A stretch of DNA of 64,000 nt from Myxococcales bacterium (GTDB taxonomy: Bacteria; Myxococcota_A; Polyangia; Polyangiales; Ga0077539), in contig JAEUKH010000043.1 of assembly GCA_016792845.1 (NCBI GenBank), positions 25,846 to 89,845 of the forward strand, given 5' to 3'. Shown here piece after piece: positions 55,277 through 61,952 of the stretch; within the stretch, counting starts at the first letter, position 1, and each line of letters starts with the position of its first letter. The notes beneath the pieces are model-generated. The model saw nothing but the letters and a program-made list of their open reading frames with translations. It was not told the DNA's origin and searched no databases. The translations under genes were made by a program, and so were the position numbers.

Positions 55277-56290
<1,014 letters not shown>

Positions 56291-56529
56291 GGTTTTTAGT
56301 CTCCAGCGCCCGATGCCAACCAACTGGTTCTTGCAGGCGCAATCGGCGACCTAGCACGGCCCGACGCGGGGCGACAATCCCCACCCGGTGTCAGAACGGT
56401 GCCCCCGCGGTGTCGCGCCCGCACAATCGAAAGCGCCGCCGCGGCTTGAGCTTTGGCGTCGAGGGCCCTTAGGCTCGGCGCGCCCGTCGGGCGCTCGGCG
56501 CGACGGCCACCACACGGAGCATCTTCGCC

Positions 56530-57204: not shown

Positions 57205-57403
57205 CCGGAGCTGAGCGGCGGGCCCGGCCCTTGCGCTTTGGGGTGAGGTCACACCGGGGGAGACGTCAGCCGCGCGCGAGTCTCGCCACAGCTGCGCATT
57301 GTGCGCCCCACAGCGATGAGGTCACGCCCCCGCCGCCGCCCGCCCCGGGGAGCCCCGCACGGGGTTGACGCCCGGGCGCGGAAGCGGCACACACCGCAGC
57401 GGA

Positions 57404-58708
57404 ATGTTGCTGCAATTTGCGGTAGAAAACTACCTCTCCGTGCGCGAGCAGGCGGTGCTCTCGATGCTGAAGCCGCCAGGCGCTCGGGTCGATCCGCGGC
57501 ACGTCGTACGGGTCGGCGACACCTGGGAGGTGCTGCGCTGCGCGGCCCTCTACGGCGCCAACGCATCGGGCAAGTCCAACCTCGTCAGGGCGCTCGGCAC
57601 CTTCCGACGCCTGGTCACCCACGGCGTGCGTCCCGACGAGACGCTCCCCGCGCAGCCCTTCTTGCTCGACGGGGCCCATGAATCAGCGCCTACGCGCTTC
57701 GAGCTTGAACTACTCCTCGATGGGCAACACCACGCCTACGGCATCGTGTTCACCCGTGAACGGGTGGTGCAAGAGTGGCTCTACCGCGTGCACGGCGCGC
57801 GCGAAGAGATGCTCTTCGAGCGCAAGCTTGACCCGGCGGGCGAGGCCGCGGTCATCACCCTCGGCGAGACCGTCACGGCCGACCCGACGCGGCGACAGTT
57901 TCTGAGCTTTGTGGCGACGGGCACCCGCGACAACCAGCCCTTTCTCACCGAGTGCGGCGAGCGCAAGGCCCATGAGCTCACCCCGGTGCTGGCGTGGTGC
58001 CGTGAGACGCCGACGATCATTCGGCCCGAAGCGCAGCACCTTGCGCTCACGGGCTTCCTCGCCGATGCGTCAAACCGCAGTTGGGTCGAGGCGAAGCTCC
58101 ACGGCTGGGGCACGGGGGTCGCGGGCATCGAGATTCAGAAGCGACCCGTCGACGGCCCGATTCCCCTCGTCAACGACGAGCCTCACGGGCTCCAGCGAGA
58201 CGAAGCGGGCCTGTGGCAACGGAGCGTGAGGTTCAGGCACGGGCCCGAAGGCTCGCCCACGCTGCCCTGGTCAGACGAGTCTGATGGCACGCGTCGGCTG
58301 ATGCACCTCTTGCCCGCGCTGCGGCGCGCGACAGAGCACGGCAAGGGCCCGTCGCTCCTCGTCATCGACGAGCTCGATCGAAGCCTGCACACCGCGCTCA
58401 CGCGACAGTTCGTTGAGACCTTTCTCGACGGGTGTGCTGCCGATGGCTCTCAAACGCAGCTGATCTTCACGACCCACGACACCAACCTGCTCAACGGCAA
58501 GTTGCTACCGCCCGCCAGCATCTGGTTCGTTGAGAAGGACCGCCACGGCGCGTCTCAGCTGTACGCGCTCGCTGAGTTTCCCGACGCCCAGGTCGATCAG
58601 CTGCTCGAACACCTCGAAGACGGCTATCTCCAGGGCCGCTTTGGCGCCATTCCCTTCATCGCCTCTCGCGACCAGCTCGCGTGGCGGCCCCCTCGCGGCG
58701 CGGCATGA
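57404..58708 (+). CDS. AAA_21-type ABC-like ATPase (AbiLi/RloA-like; putative defence-system ATPase)
   Basis: N-terminal MLLQFAVENYLSVRE. Walker A GANASGKSNLVRAL. Walker B/D-loop SLLVIDELDRSLHTAL. H-loop LIFTTHDTNLL. The track start (TTG 57365) is less likely than the ATG at 57404. Confidence 0.75.
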   Translation: MLLQFAVENYLSVREQAVLSMLKPPGARVDPRHVVRVGDTWEVLRCAALYGANASGKSNLVRALGTFRRLVTHGVRPDETLPAQPFLLDGAHESAPTRFELELLLDGQHHAYGIVFTRERVVQEWLYRVHGAREEMLFERKLDPAGEAAVITLGETVTADPTRRQFLSFVATGTRDNQPFLTECGERKAHELTPVLAWCRETPTIIRPEAQHLALTGFLADASNRSWVEAKLHGWGTGVAGIEIQKRPVDGPIPLVNDEPHGLQRDEAGLWQRSVRFRHGPEGSPTLPWSDESDGTRRLMHLLPALRRATEHGKGPSLLVIDELDRSLHTALTRQFVETFLDGCAADGSQTQLIFTTHDTNLLNGKLLPPASIWFVEKDRHGASQLYALAEFPDAQVDQLLEHLEDGYLQGRFGAIPFIASRDQLAWRPPRGAA

Positions 58709-59331
58709 GCCTGCGAGACCGAACCAGACTGCTCCAACGCAACGTCCAGCTCCGCGACGCCCGGCTCTTTGTTGTCGCCACAGAAGGGGCCGAGACCGAG
58801 CCGAGGTACTTCGAGGCCCTTCAAACCCACGGCCTCGTGCCGCGCTCTCGCATCAAGCTGCACCTCCTGCCCACCACCGACGGACGTTCGGCGCCGCAAC
58901 ACCTCATCGAGCGGGTCGAGACCTTCCTGTCGCAGTATCGCCTTCTCTCCGACGACGCGGTCTGGCTTGTGCTCGACACCGATCTCAAGTCTGGAAACCG
59001 GTGCGCGCAGCTCTCCGAACTCACCACGCTCTGCCGCCAAAAGGGTTGGCAGGTCGCCATCAGTCACCCCTGCTTCGAGCTTTGGCTGCTGCTCCACGTC
59101 TGCGACGCCCCCGCGGGGCTTTCCGACTGCGCCAGCGTGCAGAGCGCCTTGCGCAACGAACTTGGGGCCTACCAGAAGGCCACGACCCCTGCGCTTTGCT
59201 GTGAGCCTTCGGCGCTCGAAGACGCCGTCAAGCGCGCCCGATCGCTCGACCCCGCGTCGGCCGAGTGGCCCGCGAGCCTCGGAACGGGCGTCTACCGCTT
59301 GCTCGAAGCGCTCAGGGCTTCGATGCCCTGA
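58705..59331 (+). CDS. RloB-like protein (AbiLii-like partner of the AAA_21 ATPase)
   Basis: N-terminal RLFVVATEGAETEPRYFEAL matches the RloB signature (iLIVcEGekTEpnYF). A downstream acidic VLDTDLKSG is present. The ATG overlaps the upstream TGA (ATGA at 58705-58708). Confidence 0.7.
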   Translation: MSLRDRTRLLQRNVQLRDARLFVVATEGAETEPRYFEALQTHGLVPRSRIKLHLLPTTDGRSAPQHLIERVETFLSQYRLLSDDAVWLVLDTDLKSGNRCAQLSELTTLCRQKGWQVAISHPCFELWLLLHVCDAPAGLSDCASVQSALRNELGAYQKATTPALCCEPSALEDAVKRARSLDPASAEWPASLGTGVYRLLEALRASMP

Positions 59332-59547: not shown

Positions 59548-60255
59548 ATGCGAATGGTGAATGCACGTTCGATGGTGTGTGTCGGCGCAACCTGTGTGCT
59601 CGGCGCCTTGGCGCTCGGCGGCTGTGTGGTGGGGGGCACCGGCACCGTTCGATCGAACGGCTCGATTCAGGTTCGCCCCACCGTGGCGACCTCGGTCGCT
59701 GTCGCGCCCGCGCAGACGACGGTCTACGCCCAGCCCCAGCCGGTCTATCAGCAACCCCAGCCGGTCTATCAACAGCCCACCACCACCACGGTGGTCGTCG
59801 GGGCCGGGGCCGGGGGCGTCTACGCGGCGCCGCCTGCGGTGGGCTTCCAGCCGGTGACCCAGTCGTGGGTGACCACGGGATACGCCGAGAACGATTATGT
59901 CGCCTACCACATGAGCCTCAGGGCGCGTCAGTTCGCGGGCGGCTACTTCCCCATTACGCAGCTTTACCGCGGGCAGATGTACCAGGGGCAGCGGCAGTAC
60001 GTGAGCGTCGACGCTCAGCCGGGGCGCTGCTACCGCATCATCGGCGTGGGCGGCGAGGGCGTGCGCGACCTCGACCTGCGGCTCCTCGACATGCAGGGCA
60101 ACGTGATCGACCAAGACGTGGCCACCGACAACTTTCCGGTCTTGGGGCTCCAGCGTCAGCTCTGCCTGAACTGGCAGGGGAGCTTCCGCGTCGAGGTCAT
60201 CATGTACTCGGGCGGCGGCACCTTCGGCATCCAAGCCTTCGCCACGGGCGGCTGA
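59548..60255 (+). CDS. Hypothetical lipoprotein
   Basis: Lipobox LGALALGGC. GAGGAG is 8 nt before the ATG at 59548. It contains a QPQPVYQQPQPVYQQP repeat. Confidence 0.55.
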   Translation: MRMVNARSMVCVGATCVLGALALGGCVVGGTGTVRSNGSIQVRPTVATSVAVAPAQTTVYAQPQPVYQQPQPVYQQPTTTTVVVGAGAGGVYAAPPAVGFQPVTQSWVTTGYAENDYVAYHMSLRARQFAGGYFPITQLYRGQMYQGQRQYVSVDAQPGRCYRIIGVGGEGVRDLDLRLLDMQGNVIDQDVATDNFPVLGLQRQLCLNWQGSFRVEVIMYSGGGTFGIQAFATGG

Positions 60256-60319
60256 GCCCGCGCGCACCGGGGCCCCTCGGCCCCGAACACCCTGCCTTCC
60301 AGTAGGCATTCTCTCCGCT

Positions 60320-60910
60320 CCTCCTCCGACCACCCCCGACGCGGCGTGACCTGCACCCCCGGGGGCGTACGGCCTTGCGTCTGGCGCGACCTCACCCCCT
60401 GAAGGGCGCACGGCCCCGCGTCTGGCGTGACCTCACCCCCTGGGGGGCGTACGGCCCCGCGTCTGGCGTGACCTCACCCCCCGGGGGGATGCCCGGCCCT
60501 CGCGCCCCCTCTCCCTACCAGGAGAGGGGCAAATATAGACAAACTCAACCACCAGACAAAACAATAAGACTGTTAACTCGACATATCATTGCTATAATAA
60601 TAAAGAATCATCTTACGCTTGTCGTGTTTTGCCCCTCTCCTGACAGGGAGAGGGGGCACGAGGGCCGTACGCCCCCAAGGGGGTGAGGTCACGCCAGGTG
60701 CGGGGCCGTACGCCCCCAAGGGGGTGAGGTCACGCCAGGTGCGGAGCCGTACCCCCCCAGTGGTTGGGGTCACGTCGGGGGCCGATCGGCGCGCAGGCTC
60801 GCAAACACAAGGAAGTTCCGCAGGTAAACCTCAGCCTGACAGGGTGAGGTCACGCACGCCTCGAACCGCCCCGCCCCCTCGGCCCCTCAGCCCCTCCTCC
60901 GACCACCCCC
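60320..60910. mobile_element. Composite intergenic repeat element (MITE-like or iteron/origin-like): 18-bp terminal direct repeats, inverted arrays of a ~41-bp repeat, two identical hairpins, ~100-bp AT-rich core
   Basis: The 18-bp direct repeat cctcctccgaccaccccc is at 60320-60337 and 60893-60910. Three or so copies of gggggcgtacggccccgcgtctggcgtgacctcaccccct lie at 60361-60486, and their reverse complement x3 at 60656-60790. Hairpins cccctctcc-N5/6-ggagagggg are at 60506-60529 and 60632-60655. The core 60530-60630 is ~32% GC in a ~72% GC background. Confidence 0.6.
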
Positions 60911-61062: not shown

Positions 61063-61794
61063 ATGCCAACCGTCTATGTCACCGAAATCGAACGCTACCA
61101 TCGGGCCCTCTCAGGCGCCGCCGCCAACCTGCTGACCCGGGTGCAAGAGGGCGTCGACGCGCGACGCAGCGCCCGCGGGCACGCGCCGCCCGTCGCCATC
61201 GGGGCGGTGCTCGAATTCGCCCTGCTCGAAGCCGCCGCCGCGGTCGAACAGCTCGCCGCAGCCGAACAACGCCTCGACCTCGAAATCGCCGACGACGCCG
61301 AACCCAGGGCGCGACGCGATCTTCTGAGAGAGTCGCTCCGGGGGCTCGTCATCGAGGCCCGCGAGGCCATCGCAGGCGCCTACGGCGAGGCCGCCCTCAC
61401 CACCCTCGGCATCGTGGGCGGCACCGAGTCAGATGCCACCACGCTCTTGCGTCAAGCGCGGCTCCTCGCGCAAGCCAGCGAGCGGCTCGAGAGGCTCAAG
61501 GCGCGGCGCGGCGTGCGGCTCAACCTCGACGACCTCGCCTCGGAGCTCGAACCCCTGGCCTCGCAGCTCGACGCCTCGCTCCGAGACGTGGCCCGCGAAG
61601 AGGCCGAGCTCAAAGACGCCAGGGTGAACCGTGACGGGGCCGCGACCCGGGCCGAGCGTGCGCTCTCGGCGCTCCTGTCGACCGTCCATGCGGCCCTGCG
61701 CCTCGCGGGGCTGTCTGACGAGATCGCGCGTCTGCCCGCCCGCACCACCGCGCGAAGCTCGGGCCCGAGCGAGGGCGCTCCGCCGACGGCCTGA
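61063..61794 (+). CDS. Hypothetical alpha-helical protein
   Basis: Ala/Leu/Glu/Arg-rich, predicted coiled-coil-like. No domain recognised. Confidence 0.45.
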   Translation: MPTVYVTEIERYHRALSGAAANLLTRVQEGVDARRSARGHAPPVAIGAVLEFALLEAAAAVEQLAAAEQRLDLEIADDAEPRARRDLLRESLRGLVIEAREAIAGAYGEAALTTLGIVGGTESDATTLLRQARLLAQASERLERLKARRGVRLNLDDLASELEPLASQLDASLRDVAREEAELKDARVNRDGAATRAERALSALLSTVHAALRLAGLSDEIARLPARTTARSSGPSEGAPPTA

Positions 61795-61829
61795 GCCTCG
61801 CCCCGCCCGGCGTCTTCCCGCGGCCCGCG

Positions 61830-61952
61830 CCTTCCGGGCGCCTCAGAACGCCTCTCCCACCCTGGTACCGCCCTTCCGAGCGCCTCGGAACGCCTCTACC
61901 ACCCTGGTACCGCCCTTCCGAGCGCCTCGGAACGCCTCTACCACCCTGGTAC
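61830..61952. repeat. Intergenic tandem array, three copies of a 42-bp unit (ccttccgagcgcctcggaacgcctctaccaccctggtaccgc)
   Basis: Direct reading: units start at 61830, 61872, 61914. The third copy degenerates after ggtac. Confidence 0.85.

Follow-up and report, generated by a model that had tools for sequence, protein, structure and literature searches.

Structure of the repeat element at 60320-60910

We analyzed a composite repeat element located at positions 60320-60910 of a 64-kb stretch of DNA from a Myxococcales bacterium (assembly GCA_016792845.1, contig JAEUKH010000043.1, positions 25,846 to 89,845 of the forward strand). The whole stretch of 64,000 nucleotides is called the window here, and positions without a locus name are given in its numbering. 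The element sits between two genes of the same strand, and the gene annotation of the region (proteins MBL8604714-18) places no gene inside it. A sequence-only reading of the window had listed here an 18-bp direct repeat at both ends, inverted arrays of a 41-bp unit that contains a palindrome, twin hairpins and a core of low GC content. All of these features were present where it had placed them, far beyond chance.

Two modules are needed to describe the element. The U module is GGCGTGACCTCACCCCC, with the consensus (GG)GTGACCTCACCCC, and U' is its reverse complement. The H module is a hairpin of the form CCCCTCTCC-loop-GGAGAGGGG. The parts of the element, from left to right, are as follows.

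60273-60337, plus strand: left flank segment, duplicated on the right; it opens with a GGGGCC-CCTC-GGCCCC hairpin just past the stop codon of the gene at 59548-60255 and ends in the exact 18-bp repeat (60320-60337)
60343-60487, plus strand: left array, in which the 41-bp unit is present 3.6 times; GGCG(T/C)GACCTCACCCCC, the U motif of the family, starts at 60343 (degenerate), 60383, 60424 and 60465; family profile match at 60468-60532 (+), E 4.3e-6
60506-60529, plus strand: left H hairpin, CCCCTCTCC-ctacca-GGAGAGGGG, with arms equal to the family consensus
60530-60631, no strand: AT-rich core, non-coding, in the position of the cargo slot of the family layout; its ends are imperfect 13-nt inverted repeats, CAAATATAGACAA / TTGTCGTGTTTTG, and a promoter-like, extended -10-like TGCTATAAT lies at 60590-60598
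60632-60655, plus strand: right H hairpin, CCCCTCTCC-tgacag-GGAGAGGGG
60662-60783, minus strand: right array, with the reverse complement of the 41-bp unit present 2.8 times; U' (GGGGGTGAGGTCACGCC) at 60679 and 60720, third copy degenerate; family profile match at 60692-60629 (-), E 4.2e-7
60784-60892, no strand: strain-variable right segment, missing from the contigs of allele B (see below); the start of the duplicated flank, at about 60875, falls in it, and at 60835-60856 it holds a hybrid relic in which the loop of an H hairpin is joined to a U' unit (CCTGACAGGGTGAGGTCACGC)
60893-60910, plus strand: right copy of the 18-bp repeat; the strain alleles converge at 60910

The 18-bp direct repeat (CCTCCTCCGACCACCCCC) is exact at 60320-60337 and 60893-60910. 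When gaps are allowed, it extends to a duplication of approximately 45 bp of the left flank, starting from about 60273 and about 60875. Tandem Repeats Finder reported the left array at 60343-60487 with 86% matches and the right array at 60662-60774 with 91% matches. The sequence GTGACCTCAC was counted six times in the window, while 0.16 occurrences were expected. The hairpin CCCCTCTCC-N6-GGAGAGGGG was found in the 64 kb at two sites only, those listed above, against an expectation of 0.01. There are four exact and three near copies of the U module within 60343-60856; the outermost unit of the left array (60343-60359) is degenerate, and a solo unit is also present at 60840-60856. The core is 102 nt long and has a GC content of 32.4%, in a window that ranges from 65 to 78%.

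The whole element is a single long inverted repeat. Its two halves are 82% identical, the inner units approximately 95%, and the inverted symmetry reaches 13 nt inside the core and ends there. Folded as single-stranded DNA, the segment 60338-60790 gives one giant hairpin (-180 kcal/mol, z = -16), and the z-scores of the hairpin folds of the element lie between about -10 and -16.

A family of U-H repeats in bacteria and phages

The same two modules occur together in many other genomes. A scan of species-representative genomes with CTGGCGYGACCTCACCCCC returned, among the matches listed, an intergenic U followed by H in Ktedonobacterales, Anaerolineae, Chloroflexia and a Gemmatimonadetes metagenome-assembled genome (MAG). 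In genomes of Chloroflexota and Gemmatimonadota the hairpin stands within a few bases of U. Many genome matches of the 19-mer were coding sequence for WRDLTP, and these were set aside as a codon-level coincidence. The U+H pattern was further detected in more than 120 metagenome contigs and in at least 100 IMG/VR contigs, with a GC content of the loci from 28 to 73%; these counts from the collection scans are lower bounds, and the taxonomy of the contigs is a sample.

The basic element of the family consists of U, a few nucleotides, H, a few nucleotides and U', which together form an extended hairpin. A form with two hairpins, U-H-spacer-H-U', was found in 27 cases, with spacers of 9-342 nt. 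The order of the window copy, U(n)-H-slot-H-U'(n), was also observed at the loci L008, L016, L088, L109, L156, L178 and L191. Among these, L016 is compact (unit, hairpin, 8 nt, hairpin, inverted unit), the centre of L088 measures 57 nt, and L008 and L109 have 3-5 tandem units on either side of their hairpin pairs. Tandem U arrays are present in L008, L109, L359, L364, L365 and L374. We built a profile from 136 distinct U-H instances. Within the window its matches were confined to 60468-60532 (+, E 4e-6) and 60692-60629 (-, E 4e-7), apart from partial matches on the other units. The window contains one composite copy and three solo units. The arms of the hairpin are nearly invariant across the family and show no compensatory changes. 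In the other copies no target duplication was evident. Rfam gave no match for the family; at relaxed thresholds, eight family loci gave only chance-level matches to hairpins of the miRNA type.

Some copies of the family lie in-frame inside genes, namely in the linker of a sigma-54 activator and in portal and other phage proteins, where they give peptide tails such as SPSP..GEG..GEV or DLTP. The activator insertions consist of U, H and a degenerate U' (L166 6021-6083, L189 ~1300-1360, L193 1699-1760, L222 ~2900-2960). They were found in four related contigs, where they add about 20 residues to the linker that joins the AAA+ domain of the sigma-54-dependent protein to its DNA-binding domain, and they read ...ADF-GPRP(P/L/V)SPSPQRGEGERGGEV-TLR.... 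IMG/VR loci such as L285, L329, L300 and L308 encode phage proteins (portal, terminase-associated and others) in which between one and three in-frame elements are found (for instance ...DLTPRPPLRNGEGEQEGEEK...).

Small genes that follow one another in several viral contigs have the hairpins between them. The long intervals between hairpins in viral contigs, considered as possible other cargo, proved to be ordinary phage genes among which hairpins are interspersed. In a Planctomycetota MAG (JBLHKW01) the 19-mer lies within a nearly identical stretch of about 140 nt on at least seven contigs (L009, L011, L027, L030, L079, L087, L098). Since no hairpin follows the 19-mer there, this stretch is probably unrelated to the U-H family, a multi-copy gene or an insertion sequence (IS).

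A DUF559 gene occupies the slot of complete copies

We clustered 4163 open reading frames (ORFs) from 238 motif-bearing loci, and DUF559 alone was positionally tied to the modules. A recurrent transposase beside the repeats was looked for as well, and the clusters were phage structural genes and common families instead. The gene between the repeats that recurs is DUF559, and no search aimed at Y1_Tnp was made over the loci.

All six DUF559 ORFs in the 1.65 Mb of motif-selected loci (approximately 130-145 aa) adjoin modules. Five of them lie exactly between two hairpins (L167, L168, L179, L195, L201), and the sixth, in L244, is without the right bracket. All six were assigned to DUF559 (PF04480) with Pfam E values of 1e-30 to 1e-39. 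A hidden Markov model (HMM) built from these cassette ORFs detected no further DUF559 ORF in the 1.65 Mb sampled.

We also performed reverse tests, in which DUF559 genes were chosen by protein similarity only and were then inspected for brackets. Relatives of the L168 protein (54-76% identity) were bracketed in six of six cases, on Gemmatimonadota-type contigs and in five different neighbourhoods; the brackets there are U-H approximately 100 nt upstream of the gene and H-U' across its stop codon. Relatives of the L195 protein (72-78% identity) were bracketed in three of three cases, in Chitinophagaceae and other Bacteroidota with 41% GC, between trpB and trpA. A DUF559 endonuclease gene was found in the slot of 15 of 15 complete cassettes, nine of which were picked by protein similarity alone and come from two phyla.

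The cassette proteins are 35-76% identical to each other, while the bracket sequence is unchanged; the brackets are better conserved than the cargo. In most cassettes the GC content of the cargo is below that of the host. In E. coli and in the Gemmatimonadota-type cassettes the DUF559 reading frame enters the right hairpin, and the proteins share the C-terminal RRSPSP. A cassette protein matched PDB 3HRL (E 2e-14) and the catalytic domain of the homing endonuclease I-Bth0305I (PDB 3R3P, E 5e-3). These matches agree with the published grouping of Vsr, DUF559 and I-Bth0305I in one clade (PMC3424549 Table 1; PMC3239194).

The bracketed DUF559 gene lies inside the tryptophan operon in L373, L374, L375 (gene at 1201-1596) and also L195. 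The TGA inside GTGACC often provides the stop codon of the gene before it; in L195 it appears to be the stop codon of trpB, and L374 has three extra tandem U-H-U' elements with a period of 163 bp.

We found no published description of the U-H family or of its link to DUF559 in the literature searched. This link, which crosses phyla, is apparently undescribed.

The E. coli gene ycjD and its neighbouring repeat

The DUF559 gene of E. coli K-12 is ycjD (L372, NC_000913.3 1351200-1351830), and its protein ends in ...NRRSPSP*. The stop codon of ycjD lies in the loop of an H-like hairpin, which reads CCCTCTCCC-tgaaag-AGCGAGGG on the coding strand. Approximately 160 nt away, towards fabI, there is a U+H-like sequence, CCCCTCACCC-taa-CCCTCTCCCC-aga-GGGGCGAGGGGA. 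Modules were found on the 3' side of ycjD only. On its 5' side, just upstream of the start, there is a different, perfect 17-bp hairpin (TCACCTCATTCTGACAA / TTGTCAGAATGAGGTGA).

The fabI/ycjD repeat is similar to the family in that an H-like hairpin, CCCTCTCCCC-aga-GGGGCGAGGGG, comes after a U-like CCTCACCC, and in that it stands beside a DUF559 gene. It differs from the window copy in having no tandem 41-bp arrays or AT-rich core at the one locus examined. Its match to the family profile was weak (E 0.06). Every one of the 5426 complete E. coli genomes has the 55-nt U+H-like element, with a median of 19 sites per genome, and neither the listed records nor K-12 annotate it. We take this repeat to be the one called 'Box C' in the surveys of the 1990s, presumably first noticed near envM/fabI. 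To our knowledge neither a function nor a link with ycjD has been described for it.

Core of the element and variation between close strains

The core contains no plausible ORF. We considered it as a decayed DUF559 gene and obtained no signal by tblastn or by hmmsearch with the cassette HMM. In the other 91 gene-less spacers of the family, tblastn likewise detected no DUF559 remnant. Four promoter-like sites were counted in the core, while 0.0 were expected.

Close strains were compared by means of short Logan contigs which carry the flanking genes and whose flank is 98.9-100% identical to the window. These contigs match the left junction exactly and then break within the left array. Contigs spanning the core were sought through the spurious ORFs that run across it, and none was present in the collection. 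At the right end we observed two alleles. Allele A is the same as the window. In allele B the right hairpin is followed by a single variant unit (...GACAGGGAGAGGGGG-cgcgaggctcgtgcgtcctcca-GGGGGTGAGGTCACGCCAG) which abuts 60910 directly, and the segment 60784-60909 is missing, and with it the right copy of the 18-bp repeat. The samples that gave the two alleles include SRR12425364, DRR438526 and SRR29844867. The element is structurally unstable. The relic at 60835-60856 resembles what the collapse of a right end such as that of allele B would leave, and the differences in array length between the alleles fit slippage or unequal recombination.

The 18-bp repeat had been called similar to a target-site duplication. 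The repeat is indeed exact, but the close strains with allele B have the element without its right copy, which weakens this reading; the repeat does not appear to be a constant target duplication.

Neighbourhood of the element

The order of genes upstream of the element is an isochorismatase-family gene, AbiLi, AbiLii and a lipoprotein-like gene without known function (59548-60255). An AbiL-like pair 1.0 kb upstream of the element had been noticed from the sequence, and PADLOC confirmed it, with AbiLi at 57404-58708 (E 2.6e-79) and AbiLii at 58705-59331 (E 4.8e-22). The GC content of the AbiL region, 66-68%, is below that of its surroundings. The wider context is ordinary chromosome, with Ddl, Obg, radical-SAM, GGDEF and response-regulator proteins. 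Further family modules lie upstream of the pair:

57239-57255 and 57312-57328, minus strand: two solo degenerate U' units, intergenic, upstream of AbiLi

The sequences of these units are GGGGTGAGGTCACACC and GATGAGGTCACGCC, and the stretch 57239-57328 possibly represents the remains of another element. Family modules flank the AbiLi-AbiLii-lipoprotein trio on both sides and face outward, being U' to its left and U to its right.

Downstream of the element, the gene at 61063-61794 encodes a protein of 243 aa with no Pfam domain. Among 5.8 billion proteins its homologues were found only in its own 90% cluster, and it is identical in at least seven sequencing runs. Since it has no homologue beyond this cluster, it gave no synteny comparison. 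Just downstream of this gene, at 61825-61952, there is a second, unrelated tandem repeat, with 3.0 copies of a 42-bp unit and 95% matches (CCGCCCTTCCGAGCGCCTCGGAACGCCTCTACCACCCTGGTA). This unit holds a TTCCGAG-CGC-CTCGGAA hairpin, and the Logan contigs also break here. On the minus strand, 55277-56323 encodes a Cys-rich repeat protein with about six copies of C..DG.DNDC(D/N)G..DC.D..C; it has a weak match to MopE-like metal-binding proteins, typical of myxobacteria.

Discussion

The region at 60320-60910 is most likely a composite, gene-less copy of a widespread nested palindromic repeat family, the complete copies of which carry a DUF559 gene in their slot. This reading is carried by the shared modules and their shared order, the association with DUF559, the distribution across phyla and phages, the in-frame insertions and the polymorphism between strains. 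In its simplest form it would make the element a non-autonomous derivative of a DUF559 cassette, comparable to a MITE (miniature inverted-repeat transposable element) or to the REPINs, the hairpin-forming doublets of repetitive extragenic palindromic (REP) sequences. A MITE or an IS remnant had been among the suggestions of the sequence-only reading. This was right in so far as the element is a gene-less member of a repeat family; the complete members, however, carry DUF559 and not a known transposase.

The family layout is U(n)-H-slot-H-U'(n), and complete members have a slot gene for a DUF559 protein of about 130 aa (Vsr-like, PD-(D/E)xK) whose 3' end enters the right hairpin. In the window copy the slot is filled by 102 bp of AT-rich non-coding DNA, and it is a reasonable guess that this filler is foreign or remnant cargo from a donor of low GC content. 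In the mechanism that we propose, the DUF559 nuclease may recognise or nick the U and H modules, so that copies would be spread or maintained in trans; we give this step nearly even chances. The tandem U arrays would grow and shrink by slippage or unequal recombination. A bracketed nuclease gene accompanied by many gene-less copies is the signature behind the hypothesis of REP-associated tyrosine transposases (RAYTs) for REPs (PMC3116915, PMC3337134). Because here, too, many gene-less copies accompany few bracketed nuclease genes, we infer by analogy with RAYTs that DUF559 is a candidate for the enzyme that moves or maintains the repeats. The in-frame copies in the sigma-54 activator linker and in phage portal genes are signs of mobility of the family. 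Locally the element probably does little for the host. Should it act on its two same-strand neighbours at all, by insulating them or by a promoter within the core, we would regard this as a by-product.

Several observations weigh against this reading or limit how far it goes. The content and origin of the core are not explained by it. The GC content of the core (approximately 32-34% against 72% in the host) is an outlier, while the spacers of other family members track the GC content of their hosts. Exact 23-mers of the core had no match in the JGI metagenomes or IMG/VR, and in a blastn-short comparison of the core with all fetched loci nothing beyond chance matches of 13-18 nt appeared. No DUF559 gene or similarity was detected in the 64-kb window by profile or tblastn, and only one composite copy was found in it. 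DUF559 is not known to act as a transposase or homing enzyme on the U and H sequences. Several cassettes occupy conserved, apparently vertically inherited sites (Mg-chelatase/CsaA in Gemmatimonadota, trpB/trpA in Chitinophagaceae), an argument that the gene-bearing form moves little. The analysis yielded no reconstructed transposition or homing event, and no empty site was recovered for this or any other family copy. A simple transposition does not account for the long, gapped duplication of the left flank that allele A carries. Finally, since the hairpin arms are nearly invariant, there is no covariation by which selection on structure could be separated from selection on sequence.

Other explanations have to be compared with this one. 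The U-H palindromes could form an independent family that spreads by some other route, into which DUF559, as a free-standing homing gene, inserts between the hairpins; the window copy would then be an unoccupied or vacated site. The presence of the gene in only 6 of the 238 motif-selected loci, the relation of DUF559 to a proven homing endonuclease (PMC3239194) and the low GC content of the cargo relative to the host are all in line with this. However, the reading frame runs into the right hairpin (RRSPSP), which suggests that the hairpin is part of the gene unit, and no pair of an empty and a filled site was recovered. We consider homing unlikely, and the derivative model is slightly favoured over it because the frame enters the right hairpin both in E. 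coli and in the Gemmatimonadota-type cassettes. The gene-less spacers, in which no gene remnant was found, are neutral between the two models. A cis-regulatory or small-RNA module, in which the core would provide a promoter and the hairpins would bound or stabilise a transcript or insulate the genes, the repeat having been exapted, is less probable still. The promoter-like sites of the core, TGCTATAAT among them, the strong hairpins (z about -10 to -16) and the position between two same-strand genes would suit such a role. AT-rich DNA, however, yields promoter-like hexamers by chance, the core is conserved nowhere in the collections searched, and the downstream gene lies 430 bp away and has no homologues. 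No terminator-like site and no T-tract follows either hairpin. A structured small-RNA locus had been one of the earlier suggestions, and an Rfam scan of the window, which gave 0 matches at the gathering threshold and chance-level hairpin matches when relaxed, did not bear it out.

The remaining two explanations also come from the earlier suggestions, and neither is supported by the evidence. The 18-bp repeat and its gapped extension of about 45 bp could be the attL and attR cores of an attachment-site scar beside an AbiL defence islet. The extension of an exact repeat into a longer duplication of the left flank and the adjacent, lower-GC AbiL islet agree with this. We nevertheless find it very improbable, as close strains keep the right hairpin and the right U' (as far as the contigs reach) without the right repeat, and the DNA between the repeats consists of dispersed family modules and not of island genes. 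No tRNA was found in the window, and the proteins tested between 36 and 64 kb included no integrase, no transposase and no Rep or other initiator. Scarcely credible, finally, is a replication origin of a plasmid, phage or chromosome, where the inverted arrays would be iterons recognised by an initiator on either side of an AT-rich unwinding element. With its tandem 41-bp repeats, inverted about a centre of 32% GC, the element is superficially similar to the iteron origins of lambda and R6K and to archaeal oriC with inverted ORB elements. In contrast to these, the element has no initiator gene nearby: its neighbours are the AbiL pair, the lipoprotein-like gene and proteins without known homologues, and the chromosomal context is of the housekeeping kind. 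No DnaA box lies near it, GC skew has no inflection at it, and blastn of the element against plasmids and phages gave nothing. The supposed iterons are dispersed over hundreds of unrelated loci, also inside genes, and are not tied to replicons, and the other members of the family have no AT-rich centre.

Read as a gene-less member of the U-H family, the element can be compared with known repeat systems. REP sequences, bacterial interspersed mosaic elements (BIMEs) and REPINs are, like the family, short GC-rich palindromes which occur singly, as inverted doublets and in mosaic clusters between genes. The window copy shares with them the inverted doublet with a spacer and a cluster structure that varies between strains. 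As in the REP/REPIN-RAYT systems, there are many gene-less copies and one or few nuclease genes bracketed by inverted repeats. However, the RAYT gene encodes an HUH Y1 transposase, while the family gene encodes a PD-(D/E)xK, Vsr-like DUF559 protein. REP palindromes have a GTAG or CGTC head (PMC3733652), and the U and H consensus has neither. CGTC does occur in the left 41-bp units, but it is unmatched on the right, where GCACC stands and not GCGTC. REPIN-RAYT systems are reported to be lineage-specific and vertically inherited (bioRxiv 10.1101/2022.05.22.493013, 10.1101/2021.07.10.451892). In contrast to these reports, the same modules of the U-H family recur across phyla and phages, and copies lie in-frame in genes.

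The window copy resembles a MITE in being small, non-coding and bounded by inverted repeats, with related longer copies that carry a gene. It differs from one in that no consistent target-site duplication is evident in the family and that the associated gene is not a known transposase. Compared with MITEs, Rickettsia palindromic elements and Correia elements, the family has a nested palindrome of several layers, the outer of which forms tandem arrays. Rickettsia palindromic elements are known to occur in-frame in protein-coding genes, as copies of the U-H family do. The cassette protein belongs to the same Vsr/DUF559 clade as the Vsr-like (EDxHD) homing endonucleases, such as I-Bth0305I (PMC3239194, PMC2677866), and this clade holds a proven mobile-intron endonuclease (PMC3239194). 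The DUF559 genes of the family, in contrast, are free-standing between palindromic brackets and do not lie in introns or inteins, and the window copy is geneless.

In summary, myxobacteria, Chloroflexota, Gemmatimonadota, Bacteroidota and phages, with genomes of 28-73% GC, share the modules in unchanged sequence, and E. coli has a weaker, related version. In practice, such repeats break short-read assemblies and leave spurious or in-frame 'SPSP..GEG..GEV' tails in gene calls. We propose, tentatively and at somewhat less than even chances, that DUF559 proteins, including E. coli YcjD, are the dedicated nucleases of a pan-bacterial and phage family of palindromic repeats which includes the fabI/ycjD repeat. 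This would be a system like REP/RAYT with a nuclease of the Vsr-like PD-(D/E)xK fold, and the window element would be its non-autonomous offspring, with cargo from a low-GC donor in the slot. Since E. coli has both ycjD and approximately 20 copies of the repeat, the idea is directly testable in a model organism. Should the nuclease act on the modules, a testable function would be gained for a huge family of uncharacterised proteins, a long-known orphan repeat of E. coli would be explained, and a second class of enzymes would join the REP/RAYT type of genome-resident repeat systems.

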